Of a stretch of 64,000 nucleotides of DNA, positions 26,060 through 62,600 are shown in pieces (within the stretch, counting starts at the first letter, position 1; the number at the start of each line of letters is the position of its first letter). Under the pieces are notes generated by a model. The model did no database searches. It saw only the letters and a program-made list of their open reading frames with translations, and was not told the DNA's origin. The stretch is from Mobula hypostoma. Lineage: Eukaryota. A program made the position numbers and the translations under genes. The stretch covers positions 111,788,001-111,852,000 of the forward strand of contig NC_086107.1 in NCBI RefSeq assembly GCF_963921235.1, in the 5' to 3' direction.

Positions 26060-29000
26060 CAATCGAATCGGGAGCGGGAGAGGAAGCACCAGGTTTGTGA
26101 TTGGGATTTAAAAAAGAAGAATTTGCGGTCTTTTGGCATTTTCCAGCGTTCCAATCAAATAGTGATTTGCAAAGGCAAATAAGAATAAGGTTGGGACAAG
26201 CAGACCAGCCATTGTTGGAGTGGACCAGTATTAGAGTAGGGATGCTTTGGCTCAACAGACTTGGGCAAGAAAAGGCTATGTGGGGTACATATCTGGTAAG
26301 TTTCCTCTTCTTCATTCTTCATTGTCTTCTGTTCATACATAGTTAGAGCAGTGAGGATGGCTCCAGAGTCTGCGTTGCGTTCTTCACGTGAGATGTGGAA
26401 ATCCTGGCCGACCTCCAGCCTCCTAGATAGCCACATCTGAACCAGGCGCACCGAACTGCAGCTTCTCAGAGAACGTGTCAAGGAAGTGGAGCTGCAGCTG
26501 GATGACCTTCGACTCATATGGGAAACTGAGGAGATGATAGATAGGAGCTACAGGGAGGTAGTCACCCCTACGTTGCAGGAGGCAGGTACCTGAGTGAGTG
26601 TCAGGAGAGGGAAGAGAAATGGGCAGCCAGTTCAGAGTACCCCTGTGGCAGTTCCCCTCAATAATAAGTAAAACACTTTGGCAACTGTTGGGAGGTGGAG
26701 GGGGGCAACCTACTTCTTGGCAAAGACTGGGTCAAAAGTCTGAGTCTAGCGCTGTGGCTCAGAAGGAAAGTGGGGAGAAGAGGACTACAGTAGTGATAGG
26801 GGATTCCATAGTTAGAGGAGTACATATGAGATTCTTGGATGCAGTAGAGACACCCGGATGGTGTGTTGCCTCCCAGGTACCAGGGTCAGGGACATCTCAG
26901 ATCAGGTTCACACAACATTCTAAAGGAGAAGGTGAGCAGCCAAAAGTCCTGGTACATATTGGCACCAATGACATAGGTAGAAAAAGAGAGGAGATCCTGA
27001 AGGGAGAATTTAGGGAGCTAGATAGAAAGCAGAAAAGCAGGACTTCCAGTCTGGTAATCTCTGGATTGCTGCCTGTGCCATATGCCAGTGAGGGTATGAA
27101 TAAGATGACTTGGCTGATGATTGTATGGCTGAGCAACTGGTGGAGGGGTCAGAGTTTTGGATTTCTGGAACGTTGGGATCTCAGGTAGGACCTGAACAAA
27201 AGGGACAGGTTATACCTGAACCTGAGGAGAACCAATATCCTTGCAGGCAGGTTTGCTAGATGTGTTGAGTGTTTAAACTAAATTGGTAGGGGAATGGGAA
27301 CCAGTATGACAGGACTGGACATGGAGCAGTTGGTATGCAAGCAGAGGCAGTGTGTAGTGAGACTGTCGGAAAGGGCAAAATTGCAGTCAGTGGGATGAGT
27401 TGAAGTGTAACAGGGGGACAAAGTTGAAAGGGGTGATGAATACAGTGCTGAAGGTGTTATATTTGAATGCACACAGTAAACAGAATAAGGTAGATGATCT
27501 TGTGGCACAGTTAGAGATTGGCAGATATGATATTGTGGGCATCACTGAGTCACGGCTGAAAGAAGATTATGTTTGAGAGATTCACATCCAAAGGTACACA
27601 CTGTATCAAAAGGACAGTCAATTAGGCAGAGGAGGTGGTGTGGATCCGTTGGTAAAAAATGAAATAAAATCCTTGAAAATAGGTGACATCGGAACAGACG
27701 ATGTAGAATCCTTGTGGGAAGAGTTAAGGAACTGTAAGGGTAAAAAGATCCTGATGGGAGTTATATGCAAGCTTCTCAACAGTAGCCAGAATGTGGGCTA
27801 CAAGTTACAACAGGAGATAAAAAATACATGCCAAACAGGCAATGTTATGATAGTGATTGAGGATTTCAATATGCAGATAGATTGGGAAAATCAGGTTGGT
27901 GCTGATTTTGGATCCCAAGAGAGAGAATTTGTGGAATCCTTATGGGATGGCTTTTTAGAGCAGCTTGTGGTTGAGCCTATATAGGGGATCAGCTGTTCTG
28001 GATTGGGTGTTGTGTAATGAATCAGATTTAATTAGTGAGCTTAAGGTAAAGGAACCCTTAAGAGATAGGGCCTATAATATGACAGACTTCACCCTGAAAT
28101 ATGAGAGGGAGAAGCTAAAGTCAAATGTATCAGTATTACAATGGAGGAAAGGCAATGACAGAGGCATGACAGGGGAGCTGACCAAAGTTGATTGCAATGG
28201 GACACTAGCAGAACAGCAATGGTTGGACTTTTTGGGAACAATTCTGAAGGTACAGGATAGATACATACCTGTGTACATACATTATTGATGCTTCTGGACA
28301 CGTCTTCAGTGATGTTCCTGGAATCACCGGGTGTTTCGGATCTTTCAATGTCATACAATCTCCTCCAGGTGACCCAGCCGGGGCTGATCAGGCTCCAGCT
28401 TGTGTCCAGATGGCTAGCTACTTATGACTCCATGGCTCCCCTCCTTTGAGCCATAGCCACCTTGAGGCCCTCTCTGCTGCATCGGTGGTACTGCGGATGG
28501 CTCTCCCCTTCCTCTCTCCCTCGATGCCCAAAATGCTGAAGGCTCTAACTAAGGAACGGGCTACAAATCCCCTACAACCAACCTCCACTGAGAGACACCT
28601 TGCTCTCCATCTAGCCTGCTGACAGTTGCTGACCAGTCCTGCGTACTTGGAGAGCTTCCTTTCGAAGGCCTCCTCCAAGCTATCTTCCCATGGGACTGTC
28701 AGCTCCAGCAGCACCACTTGCTTAGTAGACTCAGACACTAGGACAATGTCTAGTCGCAGGGTGGTGGCTGTGATATGGTTGGGGAACTTCAGCTGCCCTT
28801 CGAGGTCCACCAACAGCTGCCAGTCCCTTGCAGGGGTCAGAATGCCTGCAGATGTCCTTTTGGCAGGTATTGGCTGCTCCCCAGCTCTGACAAAGGCAAT
28901 GGTCTGCTTGGAGGGGCGGGACCACTTCACCCACTCAACTCCTGCGCTGCCGGCTTCAGTGATGGTCTTCAGGATCTGATCATGCCTCCACCTGTACTGT

Positions 29001-29570
29001 CCCTCACCAAGTGCCCTTGTGCAGCCGCTGAGGATGTGCTCCAGGGTTCCTCGCTTGGAGCACAGTGGGCACGCAGATGACTCTGCCTTGCCCCATGTGT
29101 GCAGGTTTGATGGGCTTGGAAGCACATCGTACACTGCCTGGATGAGAAATTGGATGCGGTGTGGTTCGGCTTTCCAAAGATCAGTACCAAAAAACATGAA
29201 GTATTCTAAAGATTGGTTGATACAACCATGGCAGACAATGGAAGTCAACGCCAATGTAAAAGCAAAAGAGGGGGCATATTACAGAGCAATAATTAGTGGG
29301 AAGCTTTTAAAAACTAATTGAAGGCAACTAAAAAAGTCATAAGGAGGAAAAAGATGAAATATGAAGGTAAGCTAGCCAATAATATCAAAGAGGATACTAG
29401 ATGCTTTTCAGATATCTAAAAAGTAAAATAGAGGCGAGAGTATCTATTGAACCACTGAAAAATGATGCTGGAGGGTTAGTAATGGGGGACAAGGAAATAG
29501 TGGATGAAATGGATAAATATTTTGCATCACTCGTCAGCGAAGAAGACACTAACATTATGTCGGGAGTTCA
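26060..29570 (+). mobile_element. CR1 LINE 5' half (ORF1 SGNH esterase, ORF2 APE endonuclease), decayed and split by a HERO-like insertion
   Basis: VVIGDSIVRG and HIGTNDIG (ORF1 esterase); IEDFNMQIDW and AVLDWVLCNE (APE); sequence resumes after about 29185. Confidence 0.88.
28270..29182 (-). mobile_element. HERO-like RLE non-LTR retrotransposon 3' fragment (copy A)
   Basis: CPLC..HILSGC zinc knuckle, YRWRHD, LRLDIVL..LLELTVPWE..ERKLSKY, VEVGCRGF: restriction-like endonuclease domain. The first ~23 residues of the listed ORF come from flanking CR1. Confidence 0.88.
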
Positions 29571-30110: not shown

Positions 30111-30374
30111 TTTCCTCCCATATTCCAAAGACATACAGGTTAGTGTTGATGAGTTGTGGGTGTGCTATATTGGCACTGGGAGTGTGGCAACATTTGTGTG
30201 CTGCCAAGCACAGTCCTCGATGATTTAACTTGATGTAACTGATGCATTTCACGGTATGCTTCGATATACCGATGTCAAAACTAATCTCTTGCCTTATTGC
30301 ACGTGCGTCTAGAGAGGTCTGCTTCTTAACTGGGCACCTAAATCCTCATATTAACTATATAAAAATTTTTTTGC

Positions 30375-31740
30375 CCTGCCTACGTTATGACGAAATCAGG
30401 CAGGAAGTGGTCAGCCCGTGTAGCAGTTGATGAATCAGAGTCTAGATTGAAGCACAAGGAGACGGTTGGGGCTATCCAGCTAGGCCGCCAGGGACTTGGA
30501 TGGACAACCCACAAGTGGTGGTCATCTTCTACAGGTAAGGAGCGCCGTGAGCTTGTAACACAAGAAATACGAGAGGTAGAAGAGGAGAAGAGGTTAACTA
30601 AAACAGCTGGCCTGGCCAAACAAGGGGCTTGGACCCGGTGGGAAAGTGTTGAACAACAACATCTATCTTGGAATGTTCTGTGGCAGATGGAACTGCTCCG
30701 CATTTCTTTTCTATGCAGAGCAGCGCACAATCTGCTCCCAACACCTGCCAACCTCAGCACCTGGTATGAAGGTAAGACAGACAGGTGTGCTGCTTGTGGC
30801 GAGAAGGGAACACTTCAACATATTTTGAGTGCATGCAGAGTCAATCTTTCCAGCGGCCTGTACACTTGGAGACATAACAACGTTCTCAAAGTTGTAACAG
30901 AAGCGGCTGAGCAGAGAGTACTGCAGCACAACTTATTTCATGCCCCATGCTGCACAGAACATCGTATTTCATTTGTGAAAGAAGGCTCCAAGTCAAGGGT
31001 GTACAGTGCAGGCTCACGATCAAGCATACTTTCTTCAGCCAATGATTGGTGTGTCAAGACTGACCTGGACGGGAAAGGCAGTTTCCCGGAGCAAATAGCT
31101 TTCACCACATTGCGTCCGGATATAATGGTATGGTCTGACACCAGCAGAGAAGCGGTTAATGGTGAACTCACAGTCCCCTGGGAAGACAACATCGATGAAG
31201 CCCATGAGCGCAAGTTAACCAAGTATGCAGAATTAAGATCAGAGTGCAGAGACAGAGGGTGGAAGGTCTCATGCTACCCATTTGAGTAGGCTGCCGTGGG
31301 TTTATTGCGTTAACTTTCCAGAAGTGGCTGCATGACCTTGGCTTCACTAGAAGAGAGATCAAGTCAACCAGCAGGGCTGTAGCTGAGGCAGCAGAGACAG
31401 GATCAGCATGGGTATGGACCAAGTATGTCCAGAGGGGCAGATAGTCAGACAGTGTATACATGTCTTGCAAACCCTTCAGTAGTTGCATAGACACCTGAAG
31501 AGCAGACTATCTGTTGGATGGAAGTGACCAACAACTCTGATAGAGGCAGATGCCAAGTTTTTAAGCTCACCAGTGGAAGGTGGTGCTTTAGCACTGCTGG
31601 CCCACCACCTCGAGGGAGCCTTGATCATAAGTGGGCCGAAACTCCTGAAGACAGGTGGCAGATCAACTGATGATCCTACTGGTGATAGCACAGGACAGTT
31701 AACACCTTAGTCCACGTGTATTTTCAGTTCATTCTGGTAC
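30375..31740 (+). mobile_element. HERO-like RLE non-LTR retrotransposon 3' fragment, second family (copy B)
   Basis: GRQGLG, QGAWTRWE, CAAC..HILSAC, YTWRHN, LRPDIMVW..ELTVPWE..ERKLTKY; a 1-bp frameshift precedes VGCRGF; stop near 31444. Confidence 0.9.
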
Positions 31741-42233: not shown

Positions 42234-44784
42234 GTGAGTCAAACATTCTCTGCCACACTATTTAATAGACTATTTAGTTTCACTTGGGTATGACGGCACT
42301 TAGTTCCAGTCTTGGGAGTTAATTATTTTAGGGAAAGAAAAATTCCACGTTTTTCATGTAAAGTAAGTGGGGAGATATAAAAAAAGATCATATGTGCAGT
42401 GTAACAGAAAGACAAGTTACATGAAAGGTCCGTTAAAGAACTGTGAGGGTAACAGAGAAAATTATTTAATTAATTAATTTAAAGGTACAGTACGGAATAG
42501 GCCCTTCCGACCCTTCAACTCAAGTTGTCCCAGCAACGCCTGACAACCCCGATTCACCACTAACTCAGTCACGGGACAGTTTACAATGACCAATCAACTG
42601 GTACGTCTTTGTAATGTGGGAGGAAACCAGAGCACCCGGGGGGAAGCCACGCGTCCCATGGGGAGGACGTACAGAGAATGCCGGAATGAACTCTGAACTC
42701 CAACACCCTGAGCTGTAATAGTGTCGCGCAAAACGCTACGCTACCGTGTAGCCCCTCCTCACTCCAGGCAGAAGATCCAGATCCCCACTACCCTGTAAGT
42801 GAAGGGAATCATTGGGGAGGACGTACAGAGACCCCTTGCCGGAATTGAACTCCGAACTTTGAAGCCCTGAGCCGTAATAGTGTCGTACTGGGAAGGTGTT
42901 ACAGTGGTTGAGTTATTACAAGGAGTCGGGGTTAGGGTGAAGGCTGGTTTGCAAAATGATTAGAGCTGTCTAAGAGACCCCTTCAGGAGGAGGTAATGGT
43001 GGCCTACAGTATGACGACAAGAGGGTGAGGACAAGAAACTTCTTCCCAGGCCAGAAATGGTGAATAAAAGGGGTCATAATTTTCAGACGGTTGGAGGAAA
43101 GAATAATCTTTTTTATATATATTACATTGTACTGCTGATTCAAAGCAACACCTTTCATGGCACCCATCAGTGATATTAAACCTGATTCTGATTCTAATTC
43201 CAAATTTGATTCTGATTTAGATTCTATAAGAATTCTGATTCATGAAGGGAGGTGTGAGAGTTAAGCTCTTTACACAGTGAGTGGTGGGCACGTGCAACTC
43301 CCTGTCAGGGGTAGTGGTAGAGGCAGATACATTAGGGGCGTTTAAAAAACTCTTAGATAGGTACATGGATGATTGGAAAATGGAGGGCTATGTAGGTTTG
43401 TTTAGTCTTAGAGTAGGTGAGAAGTTTGACACAACATTGTGGGCTGGAGAGCCTGTACTGTGCTGTAATGTTGTATACTCAATGTGCTACAGGAAGGGAA
43501 ACGTTAAAACTGGGGTGGGCATGATGGCACAGTGAGGACCTGTTATAGTGGGGGGCTCTTATTCTAAGAGGAGCAATGGAAGTTGCAGTAAGGCGAGAGT
43601 AAAAGACAACATCCAGGCAAGGATGACTGTGGCAGTGAGTAGTCAAACCCAGACAAGGGAGAGCTTTGAACTGAGACTGCTAGAGACAACTTGCCCATTG
43701 CGGGCAGACAGTTGGGGGGTGATTGCGGCAGTGTGCACTGACAGCAGATGAGTGAGATCTCTCCATTGAAACTTTTCTGGAAAGGTCTTTCAAAAACATT
43801 GCTTCTCTTCACACAATAGAAAGTGCTGGAGACAGATAAGACAGGATTAATGGAAGGATGTGAAACACACCCAACAACTAAGGGACAATTGCTTTACTAA
43901 CTTCAAAGTTTTAGCTTGTAGTTTCAATTGACTTTTAACACCTTTTGTGACTTGTGTATGATCTTGCAAAGGAATTGAAAGGTATATAATTTGGCAAGTG
44001 GCCAATTCTGTCTGAAAATAACACATAAAAATGCTGGAGGAGCTCAGCAGGTCAGGCGGGTTCCATGGAAATGAATAACCAGTCGATCTTTCGGGATGAG
44101 ACCCTTCATCAGGACAGGAAAGGAAGGGGGAAAGATATCAGCACAGAAAGGGTGGGTGAAGGGGAGGAAGGACAAGCTGGAGGTGATAGGTGAAGCCAGG
44201 AGGATGGGAAAGGTGAATGAGTGGAGAAGAAGAAATCTGATAGGAGAGGAGAGAGGACCAGAGGGAAAAGGGAAAGAGGAAGGGTCTCAAGGGGTAGGGA
44301 TAAGCAGGGCAGAAGCTGTAAAAGGCCAGAGTGGGGAATAGAAGAAGATGGGAGGGGGAGGGAAAAAAACTTCTTTTACCAGAAAGAGAAATCAATATTC
44401 AGGTTTGTGGCTAATTAGACAGAATATAAAAATAGCGAGTTTTCTATCCTGGATCCAGAACAGTGTGAGTGACAGGGGCCATGCTGTGTTCCTTGTGAAC
44501 AAGTAAAATAAAAGTATGTTTGACTCATAAGAGTGCGTGTGTTCTGGGCCCGGTTCTTCTAGTTATTTTATTACTGGTGACGACAGAGTGATGCAATCAG
44601 GGAATGACAAGGTAAAAGGAATGTAACATCAAGAGAATGCTGCAGAGAGAAATAATGCAAAGTTGAGGGTGATATGATGAGGTAACAGCTTCTTACAGGA
44701 AGAGGAATGTTACAGGAAGGCCAAACTTTTCATGAGTTCAGGAGAATGAAGGTTATTCCACTTCATTGCAATACTTCTCAGTTC

Positions 44785-45190
44785 CTAGGGAAGACTGGAT
44801 TGAGGAAGTGTTTGAACATAAGAAAGCCAAATACCAGGAGATGGTAGAGCAGTACCAGAGACAGGGGTAGAGGGCACGATGCGTGCCTACAGAGCTGGGG
44901 TGTAGAGGTTTTCCTGGCTGCTCGCTCTGTAGAACCTACTCTCTCCTTGGATGGTCAACCAAACTGTGGGGGTTGCAAAGAAAAGAGTCACCAGGATGGT
45001 CACAGAGGCAGCTGAGTGAGCCTCCACATGGACGTGGACCGACGCTGATGGGACACAAGCCGGGGACTGATCAACCCGTCTGGGTCGCCTGGGTGAGGGT
45101 GTCTGATGTTGAAAGCACTGAAACACTCGGTGACCCCAGGTTACATCACTGATGATGTGCCCCAGCGCAACCTAGAACGTATCTCAGCAT
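44785..45190 (+). mobile_element. HERO-like element extreme 3' fragment (copy C)
   Basis: IEEVFEHKKAKYQEMVEQ..RARCVPTELGCRGFPG; 3' UTR alignable to copy A. Confidence 0.8.
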
Positions 45191-45244
45191 CTTTACTGAA
45201 CCACTCCCTTACTGCTTAGCATAATTGTCCTTCTCTATAGAAAT

Positions 45245-45525
45245 CACCTCACGGTAATCTTGTCAGTAACACTCTGTCTGTCTCGGTAAAACTCATCTCA
45301 CTGTGATACTCTGTGTAACTCTCTGTCCCTCTCTGTAAATCTCACCTCACTGTGATACTTTCTGTAACACCCTGTACCCTCTGTAAAACTCACCTCACTG
45401 TGATACTCTGTGTAACTCTCTGTCCCTCTCTGTAAATCTCACCTCACTGTGATACTTTCTGTAACACCCTGTCCCCTCTGTAAAACTCTCCTCGCTGTGA
45501 TACTCTCTGTGACGCTCTGTCCCTT
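45245..45525 (+). repeat. Minisatellite, ~48-49-bp unit, about 6 copies
   Basis: ctcactgtgatact recurs at ~48-49-bp spacing with alternating variants. Confidence 0.9.
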
Positions 45526-45769
45526 ACTCTGACATACACTTAGAGAACCGCCCCCCCCCCCCCCCATCACTCTATCACTCTGTGCTGGTGATTTAACCCC
45601 GGCTGCACTTCCCTTGCACAATATTCTTTAACTTTAAGTAAAACTTTGTTATCTTCTGTTTCCATGCATGTCGACAGAGTTTGACTTGAGCCTCTTTCAT
45701 CTCTTTCACCATTCAGTTTTTCACAAACCAATAATCACCCCTGCCCTCTTCCTGATTTAGACCGTAAGA

Positions 45770-53990: not shown

Positions 53991-56900
53991 TATGTAGCTG
54001 ATCAGCTAGTCTCTGTAAAGAAACTAAAGTCAACGGGACAAGTGGACGATACTACTTCAGCATAGGCCAGTTCTGATAAAGACAAGCTGAATTACTGAGT
54101 TCAGTTCTGACTTGTGAAGGCTCCACGAGGAACAGCGTGGCAGGTTGAAGATGAAAGGTTAGCATGGGAGAGGGAAGAAGAATTCAAGTGGCGGGTAGCT
54201 CAGAAAGAGCTGTTTCTGCCCCCTGGGTCCCCTCCTCCTTCATTTTCTCCCATGGCCCACTCTCCTCTCCTGTCAGATTCTTTCTTCTCCAGCCCTTGAC
54301 CCTTCCCACCCACCGGCTTCCCCTCCCCCCATCTTCCTGGCCTGTCTCCTCCCCCCCACCCCAGTCCTGAAGAAGAGTCCCAACCCGAAAACATCGACTG
54401 TTTACTCTTTTCCATTGATGCAGCCTGGCCTGCTGAGTTCCCCCAGCATTTTGTGTGGGTCGCTTTGGATTTCCAGCATCTGCAGATTTTCTGGTGTTTG
54501 TCACCATTGTTGTTGTCTGACCTGCTAGGTCTTTTCAAAGTCAAGGTCAATGTAAATTTATTATCAGAGGTTGGGTGATCAGCAGAAGGAATTCTGCAGT
54601 GAGTGGGGGGAGGAGATTTACAGTGAGACCATGCCAAAATTACATTATTACAATGAAGATTACCACTCTATGAAGTTACAAGTGCTTTCAATGCTCAAAG
54701 TAAATTTATTATAAAAGTACATATATGTCGCCTTGTACTACCCTGAGAGTCATTTTCTTGTGGGTATATCCAGGAAATGTTTAAAAAGAACAATAGAATT
54801 TACGAAAAATTGTACATAAAGAAAAACTGACCAACGTACAAAAGCAGATATACTGTGCAAGTAATTTTAAAAATCAATAACCCTGTTCTTGAAACCTGAC
54901 GAAAGGTTTTGGCCCAAAGTGTTGACTGTTTAATCTTTTCCATAGATGCTGCCTGGACTGCTGAGCTCATCCAGCATTTTGTCAGTGTTTCACAGTTCTT
55001 ACTTCATTTTCACAGCATTTAAACATTTTACATTTGATTGGCCCTATCTGACCATTTAGCGTCCTCTTGCCTTACGCCTATTTATAAAATCTGCCTATTC
55101 ATCATGAATTATCCGCACTTCCCTGTTTTCGTTCCTTTCCCTTTCTTGAATGGTGGCATTACAGTCACTGCTTCTCACCCAAAATCCCGGCAACAGTGTA
55201 TTACAGGGGAGGGGTTACAGTGACAGAGCGAGGAGTTCAGTGGAAGGCATGTGACAGGAGGGATTTACAATAAAAACATGTCCTAGCAAGGGGATTGTGA
55301 CAGATTTGTGATTATAACAAAAATTACATTACTACAATAAAGGTCGTCACTGCATGAGGTTACAAATGTGGTCTGCTTTCAAAGTTCAAAGTCATTTTTT
55401 TCATCTTCTTCATCATTATGTGCCGTGTCGCATGACGTGGGTGATCGACTGCGATTGTTCTTATAGTTCTTGGCAGATTTTTCTGAGGAACTGGTTTGCC
55501 ATTCCCTTCTTCTGGGCAGTGCCTTTACAAAGACGGGCAACCCCAGCCATTATCAACACTCTTCAGAGATTGTCTGCCCGGTGTCAGTGGATGCATAACC
55601 AGGACTTGTGGCCCTGGACAGCCGCTCACATAACCATCCACCGCCTGCTCCCATAGCTTCTCGTGACCCTAATCGTTGTGAAATTTGTTAATGTTGCAGC
55701 AGCAGCACAATGCAATACATTATAAATATAGAAAAAGAGAATTAGAGTATATATATATATAAAATAGAGTATATATATATATAAATTAGAGTATATATAT
55801 AAAATAGTTAAATTAAAAATAGTGCAAAAGCAGATATAAAAAAGGTGAAGTAGTGTTCATGGGTTCAATGTTCGTTTAGGAACCAGATAGCAGAGGGGAA
55901 GAAGCTGTTCCTGAATCACTGAACCCATGCCTTCAGGCTTCTGTACCTCCTTCCTGATGGTAACAATGTGTAGAGGACACATCCTGGGTGAATGGTGGAG
56001 CAGACTTGATGGGCCGAATGGCTGACTTCTGCTCCTTTGTCTTATGGTCTTTTCTGAGGCACCGGTCCTTGAATGTGTCTTGGATACCGTGGAGGCTAGT
56101 GGAGCTGATTTCACAACTTTCTGTAGCTTCTTGCGATCTTGCGCAGTAACTCCCCTCCCTATATCAGAATAATAATAATAATTATCAGTTTAACTCAGTC
56201 TGATTACTTACATAGACACCATCAAGTGACAAACGTCATTCACCAAATTCTTGCTTTAAAATACAAAATCATAAAAGACTCCATACCTTACTGTAAATAC
56301 AAGCCTGATTCAGTTTAGAGTCAGAGTCCCACAAATTATATTACGACTGATCCGTTATTACAGATAGGACAATCCATAATAACCATCTGGATATAATAAT
56401 ACAGGATAAACAAGCAAGAACAACTTACTTAATAGATATCAAAGTTGCTGGTGAACGCAGCAGGCCAGGCAGCATCTATAGGAAGAGGCGCAGTCGACGT
56501 TTCAGGCCGAGACCCTTCGTCAGGACTAACTGAAGGAAGAGTGAGTAAGGGATTTGAAAGCTGGAGGGGGAGGGGGAGATGCAAAATGATAGGAGAAGAC
56601 AGGAGGGGGAGGGATGGAGCCGAGAGCTGGACAGGTGATAGGCAGAAGGGGATACGAGAGGATCATGGGACAGGAGGTCCGGGAAGAAAGACGGGGGGGG
56701 GGGGTGACCCAGAGGATGGGCAAGAGGTATATTCAGAGGGACAGAGGGAGAAAAAGGAGAGTGAGAGAAAGAATGTGTGCATTAAAAAGAGTAACAGATG
56801 GGGTACGAGGGGGAGGTGGGGCCTAGCGGAAGTTAGAGAAGTCAATGTTCATGCCATCAGGTTGGAGGCTACCCAGACGGAATATAAGGTGTTGTTCCTC

Positions 56901-57551
56901 CAACCTGAGTGTGGCTTCATCTTTACAGTAGAGGAGGCCGTGGATAGACATGTCAGAATGGGAATGGGATGTGGAATTAAAATGTGTGGCCACTGGGAGA
57001 TCCTGCTTTCTCTGGCGGACAGAGCGTAGATGTTCAGCAAAGCGGTCTCCCAGTCTGCGTCGGGTCTCACCAATATATAAAAGGCCACATCGGGAGCACC
57101 GGACGCAGTATATCACCCCAGTCGACTCACAGGTGAAGTGATGCCTCACCTGGAAGGACTGTTTGGGGCCCTGAATGGTGGTAAGGGAGGAAGTGTAAGG
57201 GCATGTGTAGCACTTGTTCCGCTTACACGGATAAGTGCCAGGAGGGAGATCAGTGGGGAGGGATGGGGGGGACGAATGGACAAGGGAGTTGTGTAGGGAG
57301 CGATCCCTGCGGAATGCAGAGAGAGACGGGGAGGGAAAGATATGCTTAGTGGTGGGATCCCGTTGGAGGTGGCGGAAGTTACGGAGAATAATATGTTGGA
57401 CCCGGAGGCTGGTGGGGTGGTAGGTGAGGACCAGGGGAACCCTATTCCTAGTGGGGTGGTGGGAGGCTGGAGTGAGAGCAGATGTACGTGAAATGGGGGA
57501 GATGCGTTTAAGAGCAGAGTTGATAGTGGAGGAAGGGAAGCCCTTTCTTTA

Positions 57552-59321
57552 GTCTGGCGTACTGACCTCTACCTTGCCGAGGCACAGCGACAACTCACGG
57601 ATACCTCCTCTTATTTACCCCTCGATCGTGACCCCACCAAGGAGCACCAGGCCATTGTCTCCCACACTATCAACGACTTTATCCGCTCAGGGGATCTCCC
57701 ATCCACTGCTACCAACCTTATAGTTCCCACACCCCGCACTTCCCGTTTCTACCTCCTACCCAAGATCCACAAACCTGCCTGTCCTGGCCGACCTATTGTC
57801 TCAGCTTGCTCCTGCCCCACCGAACTCGTTTCTGCATACCTCGACACTGTTTTATCACCCCTCGTTCAATCCCTTCCGACCTATGTTCGTGACACTTCTC
57901 ACGCTCTTAAACTTTTCGATGATTTTAAGTTCCCTGGCCCCCACCGCTTTATTTTCACCTTGGATGTCCAGTCCCTATATACTTCCATCCCCCATCAGGA
58001 AGGTCTCAAAGCTCTACGCTTCTTTTTGGATTCCAGACCTAATCAGTTCCCCTCTACCACCACTCTGCTCCGTCTAGCAGAATTAGTCCTTACTCTTAAT
58101 AATTTCTCCTTTTGCTCCTCCCATTTCCTCCAAACTAAAGGTGTAGCTATGGGCACCCGTATGGGTCCTAGCTATGCCTGCCTTTTTGTTGGGTTTGTGG
58201 AACAATCTATGTTCCGTGCCTATTCTGGTATCTGTCCCCCACTTTTCCTTCGCTACATCGACGACTGCATTGGCGCTGCTTCCTGCACGCATGCAGAACT
58301 CGTTAACTTTATTAACTTTGCCTCCAACTTTCACCCTGCCCTCAAGTTTACCTGGTCCATTTCTGACACCTCCCTCCCCTTTCTAGATCTTTCTGTCTCT
58401 GTCTCTGGAGACAGCTTATCCACTGATGTCTACTATAAGCCTACTGACTCTCACAACTATCTGGACTATTCCTCTTCTCACCCTGTCTCTTGCAAAAACG
58501 CCATCCCCTTCTCGCAATTCCTCCGTCTCCGCCGCATCTGCTCTCAGGATGAGGCTTTTCATTCTAGGACGAGGGAGATGTCTTCATTTTTTAAAGAAAG
58601 GGGCTTCCCTTCCTCCACTATCAACTCTGCTCTTAAACGCATCTCCCCCATTTCACGTACATCTGCTCTCACTCCATCCTCCCTCCACCCCACTAGGAAT
58701 AGGGTTCCCCTGGTCCTCACCTACCACCCCACCAGCCTCCGGGTCCAACATATTATTCTTCGTAACTTCCGCCACCTCCAACGGGATCCCACCACTAAGC
58801 ATATCTTTCCCTCCCCGCCTCTCTCTGCATTCCGCAGGGATCGCTCCCTACACAACTCCCTTGTCCATTCGTCCCCCCCATCCCTCCCCACTGATCTCCC
58901 TCCTGGCACTTATCCGTGTAAGCGGAACAAGTGCTACACATGCCCTTACACTTCCTCCCTTACCACCATTCAGGGCCCCAAACAGTCCTTCCAGGTGAGG
59001 CATCACTTCACCTGTGAGTCGACTGGGGTGATATACTGCGTCCGGTGCTCCCGATGTGGCCTTTTATATATTGGTGAGACCCGACGCAGACTGGGAGACC
59101 GCTTTGCTGAACATCTACGCTCTGTCCGCCAGAGAAAGCAGGATCTCCCAGTGGCCACACATTTTAATTCCACATCCCATTCCCATTCTGACATGTCTAT
59201 CCACGGCCTCCTCTACTGTAAAGATGAAGCCACACTCAGGTTGGAGGAACAACACCTTATATTCCGTCTGGGTAGCCTCCAACCTGATGGCATGAACATT
59301 GACTTCTCTAACTTCCGCTAG
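57552..59321 (+). CDS. Penelope-like RT and GIY-YIG endonuclease, 5'-truncated, uninterrupted frame
   Basis: Frame is open from 57552 (FYLLPKIHK..GRPIVS) through DVQSLYTSIP, GVAMG, RYIDD, FLD, the Cys linker CKRNKCYTC and GVIYCVRC..LYIGET..RFAEH. Confidence 0.92.
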   Translation, partial: VWRTDLYLAEAQRQLTDTSSYLPLDRDPTKEHQAIVSHTINDFIRSGDLPSTATNLIVPTPRTSRFYLLPKIHKPACPGRPIVSACSCPTELVSAYLDTVLSPLVQSLPTYVRDTSHALKLFDDFKFPGPHRFIFTLDVQSLYTSIPHQEGLKALRFFLDSRPNQFPSTTTLLRLAELVLTLNNFSFCSSHFLQTKGVAMGTRMGPSYACLFVGFVEQSMFRAYSGICPPLFLRYIDDCIGAASCTHAELVNFINFASNFHPALKFTWSISDTSLPFLDLSVSVSGDSLSTDVYYKPTDSHNYLDYSSSHPVSCKNAIPFSQFLRLRRICSQDEAFHSRTREMSSFFKERGFPSSTINSALKRISPISRTSALTPSSLHPTRNRVPLVLTYHPTSLRVQHIILRNFRHLQRDPTTKHIFPSPPLSAFRRDRSLHNSLVHSSPPSLPTDLPPGTYPCKRNKCYTCPYTSSLTTIQGPKQSFQVRHHFTCESTGVIYCVRCSRCGLLYIGETRRRLGDRFAEHLRSVRQRKQDLPVATHFNSTSHSHSDMSIHGLLYCKDEATLRLEEQHLIFRLGSLQPDGMNIDFSNFR

Positions 59322-59614
59322 GCCCCACCTCCCCCTCGTACCCCATCTGTTACTCTTTTTAATGCACACATTCTTTCTCTCACTCTCCTTTTTCTCCCTC
59401 TGTCCCTCTGAATATACCTCTTGCCCATCCTCTGGGTCACCCCCCCCCCGTCTTTCTTCCCGGACCTCCTGTCCCATGATCCTCTCGTATCCCCTTCTGC
59501 CTATCACCTGTCCAGTTCTCGGCTCCATCCCTCCCCCTCCTGTCTTCTCCTATCATTTTGCATCTCCCCCTCCCCCTCCAGCTTTCAAATCCCTTACTCA
59601 CTCTTCCTTCAGTT

Positions 59615-59650
59615 AGTCCTGACGAAGGGTCCCGGCCTGAAACGTCGACT
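59615..59650 (+). ncRNA. Minimal type I hammerhead ribozyme motif (mirror copy 56491-56527, minus strand)
   Basis: agtc-CTGACGA-agggtcccggcct-GAAAC-GTC-gact; predicted cleavage after 59646. Confidence 0.82.
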
Positions 59651-62600
59651 GCGCCTCTTCCTATAGATGCTGCCTGGCCTGCTGCGTTCACCAGCAACTT
59701 TGATGTATGTTGCTTGAATTTCCAGCATCTGCAGAATTCCTGTTGTTTGTACTTAATAGATATAGCCATTCCAAACCCACATAACATACAGAAATCATTA
59801 GGTGAAAACCACCAGGAATATGCTGAATTGAAAGATTAAGTTAAAAGACAATGGAACATGAACAGAGTATACATTGTCCCAATAGTTATCTTCCCAAAGT
59901 CACCACACAGTAACATTAAGCAATTAAGACCACACAGTAAAATCTATGTAAATCTCCAGGAAGCCACAATACCAGAATAGTCCCAAAGTTCCCGGCAATT
60001 CAGAATGAATGTGCTTAGCTATGTCCTTACCTCAGGTTTTACCAGCTTGAGGAGAGATATGATAAACAATAATAAAAATATTACTCTGGGTATTACAGCA
60101 GGGGAAATGTTTCTGCAAATTGATGCTGTATAGAGGAAAATATTCCATTATGGGCATGTTGCAGCAAGAATAGTTACTGTAGTTGGTTGTTACAAACAGT
60201 GGAGAGGAAAACATCAATTCAGTGTTATATTAAGGGGCTAGATATAATGGGTGGGGTTTTACCACATGAATATTGTGGATCCATGAGTAAACAAAGACAG
60301 ACTATTACAGGAAAGGCATTGCAGCAAAATGCCCTTTACAGAATGTTTTACAGCAATGGGAATCTAATAAAAATCAGGTTTAATATCACCAGCATATGAG
60401 ATTTGTTAACTTTGCATCAGCAGTCCAATGCAGTACGTGATAAGAGAGAGAAAAAGTAGTGAGGTAGAGTTTACGGGTTCAATGTCCATTCAGAAGTCGG
60501 ATGGCAGAGGGGAAGAAGCTGTTCCTGAATCTCTAAGCGTATGCCCTTAGGCTCCTGGACCTCCTTCCTGATGGTAGCGATGAGAACAGGGCATGACCTG
60601 GGTGATGGGGGTCCTTAATGACGGATGCCAACTTTCTGCAGCGTCGCTCCTTGAAGATGTCCTGGATACTATGGAGGATAGTGGCCATGACAGAGCTAAG
60701 TTTACAGCTCTCTGCAGCTTATTTCCATCCTGTGCAGTAGCTCCCCCCTCCCCACACAAGACAGTGATACAGCCAGTTAGAATGCTCTCACCAGCACATC
60801 TGTAGAAATTTGTGTGTTTTTGGTGACATACCAAATCTCCTCAAACTCCTAATGAAACATAGTAAATAAAGTAAAGTAAAGCCACAGTCTTGCCTTCTTT
60901 GTAGCTGCATCTATACGTTGGGTTTAGGTTGGGTCCTCAGAGATATTGATACCCAGGAATTGAAAATATTACAGCAGAAGGATTGGTGCTGTGCCCCTGG
61001 AGTTATAACCAGGTTTGCTTCAGTAATGGAATGTTAAAACAGACCGTACGTTGTACAAGCAGAATGTTATAGCAAGGGGGGCATGCTACATCAGAAGTGA
61101 CAAGGCTTGAAACAGGTCGATGCAACAAATGACCTAAAGTTTATTTATTTATTGAGATACAACACAGAGTAGGCACTTTCAGCTCAAAGCAGTCCCCGAC
61201 TTAACCCTTCTCTAATCATGGGACAATCTGCATTGACCAAAGTGTTAGGTCTTTGGACTGTGGGAGACAAAACCCACACATTTCACGGGGAGGGCATACA
61301 AGCTCCTTACAGATCAGAAGTGAACTCCGAACTCCAACGCCCTGAGCTGTGATAACGCCGTGATAACCGCTACACCGCCGCGAATTATCACTCCGAAGGC
61401 TGTGGCATAACTAGGCAAAGGATGAGGTTGTGTTAGTCATCACTGCAACAGTGTCGGGGCCCACACTATTCTGTTTCCAGTCTCCATGCAATTTTTGTTT
61501 TTTTCCCAGGCCAGACTAATGGTCCTTTGGGTAAATCCTGGTTAACACATCGCATAGACAAGGATGCATCGTCATCCTCTAAAATAAATGTGAACCATTT
61601 GACCTACCTTCATCCTAAACACAAAAAAATCCCTTTGTCCTATCCACCTCTCCCAGTATCTTCTCTGCAACCTATAAGTTACCTTCCTCTCAGTTCTGAG
61701 GAAGGGTCTCTGACATGAAGATTGTCAACAGCTCGAAACGTCAATTGCTTACTCCTGGTGAGTTCCTCCAGCATCTGCAGAATCTCTTGTTTGTGTGGAA
61801 TATGACTTTTTCTTTTTCCTGACATGCTGCAGAGTATTGCTAGCTCTCTCTTAGATCTGCAGAATGTTTTCATTCAAGTTCAGTCCACCCTTTCTTTTCT
61901 ACTTTCTTCCCATATTCCTTCATCTATTTTTTTTAAGCGAGAGGAACTGTATTCAGCCTGACGCATACCAGATTGTGGCCCCTGGCTCTGAACTTCCTTA
62001 ACATTTCTATTTTATGAGGAAGTGAGAGTTTGACACAAATGGTTTCATTAATATTTAACTTGGAAGGTTGCAGTGCAAGCACTACTCAGAGTGAACCGAG
62101 CAAAAAGCAAATATAATCACAATGCCCCAGAGTCATGCTTTTCCTTTCTCAAACACCTTTCAGAATGTTCTGGAAGCAGTAATGTCTCTGCATCTCTCTC
62201 TGGGACCCTGGAAAAGAGTTAGGGATTCAAACATTTAGGGTACATTAAGTGGAAGGAAAGCCCGCAGGGCTCATTTCCTGCTGTGGTTTTCTTCTGTAGA
62301 TCCAGGCAGACTTACTGGAACTTTCCACTCACTACAACAAATTGCTCTTCACAGCTTTAGGGATCTGGTTTCACTCCTGCCTTCTGGTGTGGAACCATCA
62401 GTGTGCATTTTCCACTAAGTGTCATACCAAAGATCTGCCAATAAGTTAATTGGTTACTATAAATTACCTTTTATTTTATTGATTTATTTGTTTGTTTTAC
62501 TTAGAGATTTATTTATTTATTGAGATACAGCAAGGATTAGGTCCTCCTAGGCCTTGAAGCAACGCCACCCAGCAACCCCCGACTTAACCTCAGCATAATT

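Follow-up and report, generated by a model that had tools for sequence, protein, structure and literature searches.

A conserved, predicted hammerhead fold with a split core in HERO-type LINEs, decayed in a copy from the ray Mobula hypostoma

LINE copies of the ray window and the motif of copy C

The window, that is, the whole stretch of 64,000 nucleotides analysed here (Mobula hypostoma, contig NC_086107.1, positions 111,788,001 to 111,852,000, forward strand), consists of repeat-rich vertebrate DNA. One group of LINEs is represented in these 64 kb by three 5'-truncated copies, named A, B, and C. Copy A lies on the minus strand and extends from the motif described below to the end of its ORF (28296-29146). 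Its ORF end (28418..29146) encodes a zinc knuckle and a restriction-like endonuclease, and its motif (28296..28408) is 78% like that of copy C, with the triplet GUA, the core CUGAAGA, and a damaged stem III. Copy B, on the plus strand (30363-31682), has an ORF end (30363..31444) broken near 31286 and a motif (31570..31682) of a distant family, in which all helices are kept with other letters and the triplet is GCC. Copy C, also on the plus strand, runs from an ORF remnant to the element end (44779-45191); the remnant is the broken, 5'-truncated C-terminus (44779..45049), corresponding to the end of the restriction-like endonuclease. The contigs of its family cover copy C from 44779 and continue upstream of that point as further ORF. 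A tandem repeat with a period of 49 bp, apparently host DNA, begins about 40 nt past the end of copy C (45233-45530). The window also contains a Penelope-like element (56431-59711), whose ORF (57492-59321) encodes a reverse transcriptase and a GIY-YIG domain and which is enclosed by long inverted repeats of 852 and 272 nt with 98-99% identity.

The ORF end of copy A was used as the query for homolog searches, and the top protein match came from Mobula hypostoma itself (89%), followed by teleosts, lancelet, and scallop. Full-length relatives have a single ORF of 1,118-1,165 aa with the domains RVT_1 and zf-RVT (reverse transcriptase and zinc knuckle), and R2 proteins are the closest solved structures to it. 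The ORF has the architecture of the R2 group, with an N-terminal zinc finger, the reverse transcriptase, the zinc knuckle, and a C-terminal restriction-like endonuclease, the motif of the latter having been read by eye. Copies A, B, and C and their relatives are R2-group LINEs. We take the clade to be HERO, a name that fits the domain order, the host range, and the absence of target specificity. In the portions of the literature consulted, HERO elements are described as mostly not target-specific and as having fish, lancelet, and sea urchin as hosts; here the 3' flanks were unlike one another and the homologs were distributed as indicated above.

An earlier note, made from the letters of the window, had proposed that copy C ends in a hammerhead-like RNA that retains a GUC triplet and both core boxes, and all the parts it named were found, base by base, at the positions it gave. 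Following the plus strand of copy C, the 5' strand of an outer helix (helix a, 45050..45057) pairs with 45156-45163 in 7 of 8 positions and covaries in the family. It is followed by hairpin h (45058..45081, 6 of 7 pairs), which the note had not named and which closes a four-way junction as its second extra helix. Next come the 5' strand of stem II (45082..45086), whose first base is the equivalent of G10.1 detached from CUGAUGA, and the 5' strand of the joining helix (45088..45093), the long-range pair of the note, complete with 45135-45140 (6 of 6). The 3' strand of stem III and the triplet occupy 45097..45103, stem III being formed by 45097-45102 with 45123-45128 (6 of 6, one G-U). Given the GUC at 45101-45103, scission is predicted after 45103, in analogy to hammerheads. 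The 5' strand of stem I (45104..45109) pairs fully with 45143-45148 (6 of 6). The stretch 45115..45128 contains the 3' strand of stem II, GAAA (45120-45123), and the 5' strand of stem III, and the stretch 45135..45155 contains the 3' strands of the joining helix and of stem I and the core CUGAUGA (CTGATGA in the DNA, 45149-45155). The 3' strand of helix a (45156..45163) comes directly after CUGAUGA, and a spacer (45164..45191) without poly(A) leads to the genomic 3' end of the family, the putative start of reverse transcription.

The helix before GAAA is damaged in copy C, as the note had said: only 3 of the 5 pairs of stem II remain (45082-45086 with 45115-45119), one of them a G-U, with two mismatches. 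The comparison with a family consensus that it had suggested was carried out with the contigs of two DNA runs aligned to copy C and did not refute its reading; the majority letters at 45116 and 45117, with about 80-85% of the depth, restore stem II. In the same contigs there is a C at 45119 in 35%, and helix a is repaired at 45160; changes in the triplet or in the core boxes were absent among the 40 best-supported of 139 differences from copy C. The damage to stem II is particular to copy C, which is probably a poor or dead cutter as judged from its letters. In copy B the pairs hold in spite of the different letters (stem II 5/5, long-range pair 6/6, stem I 6/6), again in agreement with the note; blastn detected no likeness between this copy and copy C, yet all helices are kept, and with the triplet GCC U16.1 is lost. 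Of the 6 places in the window with the bare spacing GAAA..CTGANGA, 3 are copies A, B, and C. Folding of copy C as a single sequence recovered nested helices only, with a z of -1.69, so it is not evidence by itself. Copy C is valuable as a pointer to its family and not as a working ribozyme.

Conservation, core signature, and strand order of the motif

Related loci were retrieved from metagenome contigs with an alignment of 50 ORF ends. The 78 loci obtained came from the best 80 of 516 by protein score and were chosen by protein likeness only. A strict descriptor, written from the window's own copies, found the motif 3' of the ORF in 51 of 72 loci that have 120 nt or more of downstream DNA; the 72 reverse strands, the 72 ORF regions, and 7,200 dinucleotide shuffles gave no match. 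When the other 27 loci were parsed under relaxed rules, 10 more scored above the null maximum of 39, a copy at the start of L031 included. As for the remaining 17, there were 7 contigs that stop too early, 3 deleted or decayed remnants (L026, L042, and L072), and 7 loci with enough downstream DNA in which no motif is detectable (L047, L048, L059, L071, L074, L077, and L078); it was likewise not found in L080 and L083. CTGANGA was present within 400 nt in 56 of 68 loci. The motif spans proteins down to 34% identity, and many different stem I sequences are spread across a quick tree, which was used for spread only. Several of the loci without motif sit on deep branches of this tree: L059, L071, L074, L077, L080, and L083 are deep-branching and have no detectable motif, and their neighbours L052 and L061 do have it. 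Loss, or replacement by another structure, is possible on these branches.

Relatives were also sought outside these contigs. None was found in viral contigs or in a first prokaryote scan. In prokaryote assemblies there were 6 short matches, two of them with downstream DNA that lacks the motif, and all six are probably host contamination. Short HERO-like fragments in bacterial isolate assemblies (L079, L081, and L082; Thalassococcus and Alcanivorax), 45-68% like the ray copy, are probably contamination with animal DNA.

A MAFFT alignment, based on sequence only, was made with 43 sequences, namely 40 non-redundant loci and copies A, B, and C. In this alignment 93.4% of the cells pair, compared with 65.0% after shuffling (0 of 500 shuffles as high) and 29-49% after sliding, among sequences picked by a descriptor that itself favours pairing and fixes the core letters. 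Two-sided changes were found in 18 of 21 pairs and across all four helices, that is, stems I, II, and III plus the joining helix. RNAalifold applied to the same alignment returned the joining helix and stem III only, because crossing helices cannot be drawn by it and helices a and h are misaligned.

Considering how the sequences were picked, the positions that the descriptor left free are the more telling ones; that CUGANGA, GAAA, and U16.1 do not vary in the 51 strict matches follows from the descriptor itself. All 51 have A, C, or U at N17, with G never seen there, and at N7 all four letters occur. The NUH triplet, with the pair U16.1-A15.1, returned in the same form when U16.1 was freed, and the pair closing stem II, G10.1-C11.1, was G-C in 33 of the 40 non-redundant loci. 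The core pair C3-G8 is replaced by U3-A8 in L031, whose ORF of 1,165 aa is open, and by U3-G8 in L017 and L023; the cases are few. The change from C3-G8 to U3-A8 is a known covariation of active hammerheads according to the available part of PMC3088659. The motif has the sequence and helix features of a hammerhead: the core CUGANGA and GAAA, three covarying stems, an NUH triplet with H different from G, and a C3-G8 pair able to covary.

The order of the strands is unusual. From 5' to 3', it comprises helix a, hairpin h, the 5' strand of stem II, the first joining strand, stem III-NUH-stem I, a short linker, stem II-GAAA-stem III, the second joining strand, stem I-CUGANGA, and the closing strand of helix a. 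A9 and G10.1 are bridged by the two extra helices, a and h, which gives a four-way junction, and the joining helix links the far ends of stems I and II. A circular hammerhead of type I, II, or III was rejected, the order being S-G-C instead and the C block being split. The canonical stem II of an S-G-C arrangement, formed by the strand after CUGANGA with the strand before GAAA, was also discarded, for these two strands pair about as often as they do across families: at most 1 contiguous pair in 27 of 39 loci, against 71% in cross-family pairings, and at least 3 contiguous pairs in 8 of 39, against about 13%. It is the upstream strand that covaries with the strand before GAAA, with a mutual information of 0.77-1.56 at four positions. 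Helix a reached a score of at least 18 in 30 of 39 own pairings and in 39 of 1,376 cross-family pairings, and 19 of 40 loci have helices a and h set directly against the core, every base at the junction being paired. We infer that stem II keeps its usual stacking on the core and that helix a stacks on hairpin h. A median of 26 base pairs, in helices a, II, and III and the joining helix, would hold both predicted cut products together. The ORF stops within helix a or hairpin h in about 17 of 40 loci, frequently with its stop codon in a TGATCA loop, and translation there would extend into the ribozyme; in the other loci the stop codon is up to 144 nt upstream.

Rfam had no match in the window; in 8 intact loci it gave 3 weak, unrelated matches and none over the motif. 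A C/D-box snoRNA, which the letters TGATG and CTGA could suggest, was dropped as a matter of judgement, since the flanking helices and GAAA covary as in a hammerhead. Taking into account the constraints on the free positions, intact members of the family are very probably catalytic, a prediction made from their sequences. The proposal of the earlier note, that a HERO element has at its 3' end a hammerhead-like RNA cut after the GUC, is supported as regards the nature of the RNA: about 40 divergent families show the covariation, and which positions are conserved and which are free follows the pattern specific to hammerheads. The RNA is not confined to the 3' end, since the same stretch is found upstream of the 5' UTR in full-length relatives.

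Element ends and the proposed role of the ribozyme

The motif is located between the end of the ORF and, in head-to-tail forms, the 5' UTR. At their starts, L003, L007, L014, and L031 carry the motif and its spacer upstream of the 5' UTR, and in 11 of 39 parsed loci with sufficient sequence the motif leads to a conserved motif of the 5' UTR, 50-98 nt past CUGANGA. A unit of about 3.7 kb is present in circularly permuted form in several contigs. The head-to-tail contigs are collapsed metagenome assemblies, so they establish the junction and not its origin. L024 (95-7330) carries two subfamilies, 68% alike, head to tail and each with its own ribozyme, an arrangement that may reflect a template switch, insertion of one copy at another's end, or an assembly chimera.

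An array of roughly four short hairpins, linked by UGAC and with loops resembling GAAAGA, opens the 5' UTR (L003:127-235, L007:105-215, and 14 more loci in the alignment), and 11 of 15 predicted pairs in it show two-sided changes. The array, absent from the truncated copies of the window, is possibly a protein-binding or translation-start element. In four families the element ends 14, 14, 14, and 15 nt before it. Copies in the ray stop at about 45191, which is 88 nt past the predicted cut, with 120 and 104 loose ends in the two DNA runs and unlike flanks. In genomic copies the sequence on either side of the predicted cut is present. In L022 the inverted copy, which is on the minus strand, has its junction with host DNA some 37 nt downstream from the cut and extends from there into the 5' UTR. 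Among 11 contig ends in the motif region, that of L013 falls exactly at N17 and L007 begins 1 nt inside the 3' product; two further contigs both end at +19. The two contig ends at the cut are suggestive only.

Since units are joined head to tail through the motif and the ends of copies fall 14-15 nt short of the array, the ribozyme likely makes end-clamped or circular monomers. We propose, with moderate confidence and from sequence comparison, that the conserved fold, decayed in copy C, cuts tandem or end-repeated transcripts into units with joined ends, on which an internal start of reverse transcription crosses the cut site. If catalysis is granted, this role for the ribozyme is fairly probable. 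In the most economical single account, the steps would be as follows. Cleavage would take place after NUH in tandem or end-repeated transcripts, leaving a monomer that goes from the cut through the spacer, the 5' UTR, and the ORF back to the cut. Its ends, clamped by the roughly 26 base pairs of helices a, II, and III and the joining helix, would then either be ligated again into a circle or be bridged by a template jump. Bound to the hairpin array, the protein would prime just upstream of it, some 75-145 nt downstream from the cut (88 nt for the family of copy C), and reverse transcription would copy the spacer and the ribozyme's 3' half, pass the junction, and go onward through the ORF. Less than one round would yield 5'-truncated copies such as A, B, and C, and more than one round would yield end repeats and tandems. 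The chances seem about even for the fuller version, in which HERO-type LINEs replicate via an RNA circle of unit length, or one that is nicked and held closed by a clamp of about 26 bp, with a hammerhead of new topology and with internal target-primed reverse transcription at a site set by the hairpin array.

The strongest rival accepts an active ribozyme but takes the uncut tandem transcript as the template of insertion, as in the Penelope-like element PAc: the internal start would read through the uncleaved motif, and cleavage would make the 5' end of a messenger or limit activity. Copies that span the cut site intact agree with it, as do the 5' copies of L003 and L014, which extend 23 and 27 nt upstream of the cut and which a monomer starting at the cut explains only via a circle or a jump; nor is there a hot spot of 5' junctions at 45104 among the 24 loose ends listed of 730. 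In the available part of PMC11167929, core mutants of PAc left insertion unchanged and no RNA-seq ends were seen at the cut. On the other hand, L013 and L007 do end or start at the cut or 1 nt from it, and a topology that clamps the products with about 26 bp is kept over the whole clade, which a template left uncut does not need. We regard this explanation as rather unlikely, although it deserves more weight than the two that follow.

An ordinary linear LINE transcript, going from just before the array to the end of the spacer, would assign to the ribozyme only a nick in the 3' UTR, and head-to-tail units would come from template jumps, insertion at copy ends, or assembly. The reverse transcriptase of R2 jumps between template ends, the head-to-tail contigs are collapsed assemblies, L024 joins subfamilies 68% alike, and the forward copy of L022 seems to begin near the array, all of which suits such a transcript. 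It is nevertheless improbable. The ends listed for copy C and its relatives have no poly(A) or other 3'-end signal, save a TTG run in L065 that is maybe target DNA; the inverted copy of L022 starts inside the ribozyme and not at the array; and with internal priming the fixed 14-15 nt to the array calls for no additional mechanism. Slightly less credit still is given to a fold without catalysis, a protein-binding 3'-UTR pseudoknot like that of R2 which holds, or descends from, the core letters of a hammerhead. It would account for a split between A9 and G10.1 that has no precedent in the parts of the literature examined and for the missing Rfam match in the window and the 8 intact loci. Rfam models, however, cannot represent such a strand order, and N17 never being G, N7 being free, the U3-A8 core, and the retention of G10.1-C11.1 and U16.1-A15.1 are catalytic constraints.

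If the fuller version, with its RNA circle, is true, it would mean a LINE running on a viroid-like template. The proposed scheme of cut and end-joined monomers is a possible answer to how an R2-group LINE that is not site-specific sets its RNA ends with neither poly(A) nor an rRNA co-transcript. Because R2-group proteins are under development as gene-insertion tools, there would be practical interest in one that starts internally on an RNA that is circular or clamped.

Comparison with known systems

In the literature searched, where subscription papers are under-represented and outside which Repbase and the Hero survey of Fell et al. 2025 lie, no paper was found that links HERO or RLE LINEs to a hammerhead. 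Within the parts consulted of PMC6765202, PMC7650587, PMC3636483, PMC13708176, PMC13580325, PMC9004415, PMC4640811, and bioRxiv 10.64898/2026.07.22.740005 there was neither a hammerhead in these LINEs nor one with a split core. The motif has the parts of a hammerhead in an arrangement not found in that literature and is widely conserved in a group of animal LINEs. If true, it would be the first hammerhead that is not circularly permuted to be tied to a known biological element in animal chromosomes.

The nearest relatives in design are the type-SGC hammerheads (HRIMA-1 and variants) of Eckert et al. 2023 (PMC10085705), which, in the sections available, come from metatranscriptomes only, none from the genome of a known organism, and average 61-65 nt. 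The HERO motif shares with them the order of the cleavage, GAAA, and CUGANGA strands, a short linker between stems I and II, a helix joining the far ends, and the core letters. In type-SGC the 5' strand of stem II comes directly after CUGANGA; in the HERO motif it is at the 5' end and tied to A9 via two extra helices. The block order of type-SGC is found here, and the intact block C, with the strand of stem II right after CUGANGA, is not. The HERO motif measures about 115 nt and belongs to chromosomal LINEs of animals. As predicted from its sequence, it would work like a type-SGC hammerhead without being a member of the type as defined. Eckert et al. take CUGANGA to be inseparable from the strand of stem II, the known alignments having at most 1-2 nucleotides inserted there (same sections of PMC10085705). 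This assumption of continuity, built into the descriptor searches of that paper, is broken by the HERO motif, so more ribozymes have probably been missed.

The proposed replication resembles that of Penelope-like elements such as PAc, which, in the portions consulted of PMC11167929 and PMC6765202, likewise have head-to-tail or end-repeated units, a hammerhead at the unit junction, and genomic ends at an internal start of reverse transcription. These elements carry a GIY-YIG endonuclease, a telomerase-like reverse transcriptase, and small type I hammerheads in pseudo-LTRs, whereas the HERO-type elements have an R2-like protein and a large, knotted ribozyme. In PAc the hammerhead is dispensable for insertion in vitro, and internal priming is called unique to Penelope-like elements (PMC11167929, available part); the HERO case suggests that it occurs in true LINEs too.

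With the LINEs R2, R4, RTE, and L1Tc, which have HDV-like ribozymes, there is in common that a self-cleaving RNA frees the RNA of the element from a longer transcript, and with R2 also the R2-group protein (PMC6765202 and PMC13708176, in the parts available). According to the same parts, the HDV-like ribozymes are wholly 5' and cut at their own edge, and priming occurs at the RNA's 3' end. The HERO-type hammerhead, in contrast, is predicted to cut in its own middle, and the copies examined have it at their 3' end. Finally, the non-LTR retrozymes (bioRxiv 10.64898/2026.07.22.740005, portions consulted) also consist of tandem units each with a hammerhead, whose self-cleavage gives monomers and circles, as predicted here for the HERO-type. 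They are short, non-coding, provided with type I hammerheads, and linked to Penelope-like elements, whereas the HERO-type unit, of about 3.7 kb, is autonomous.
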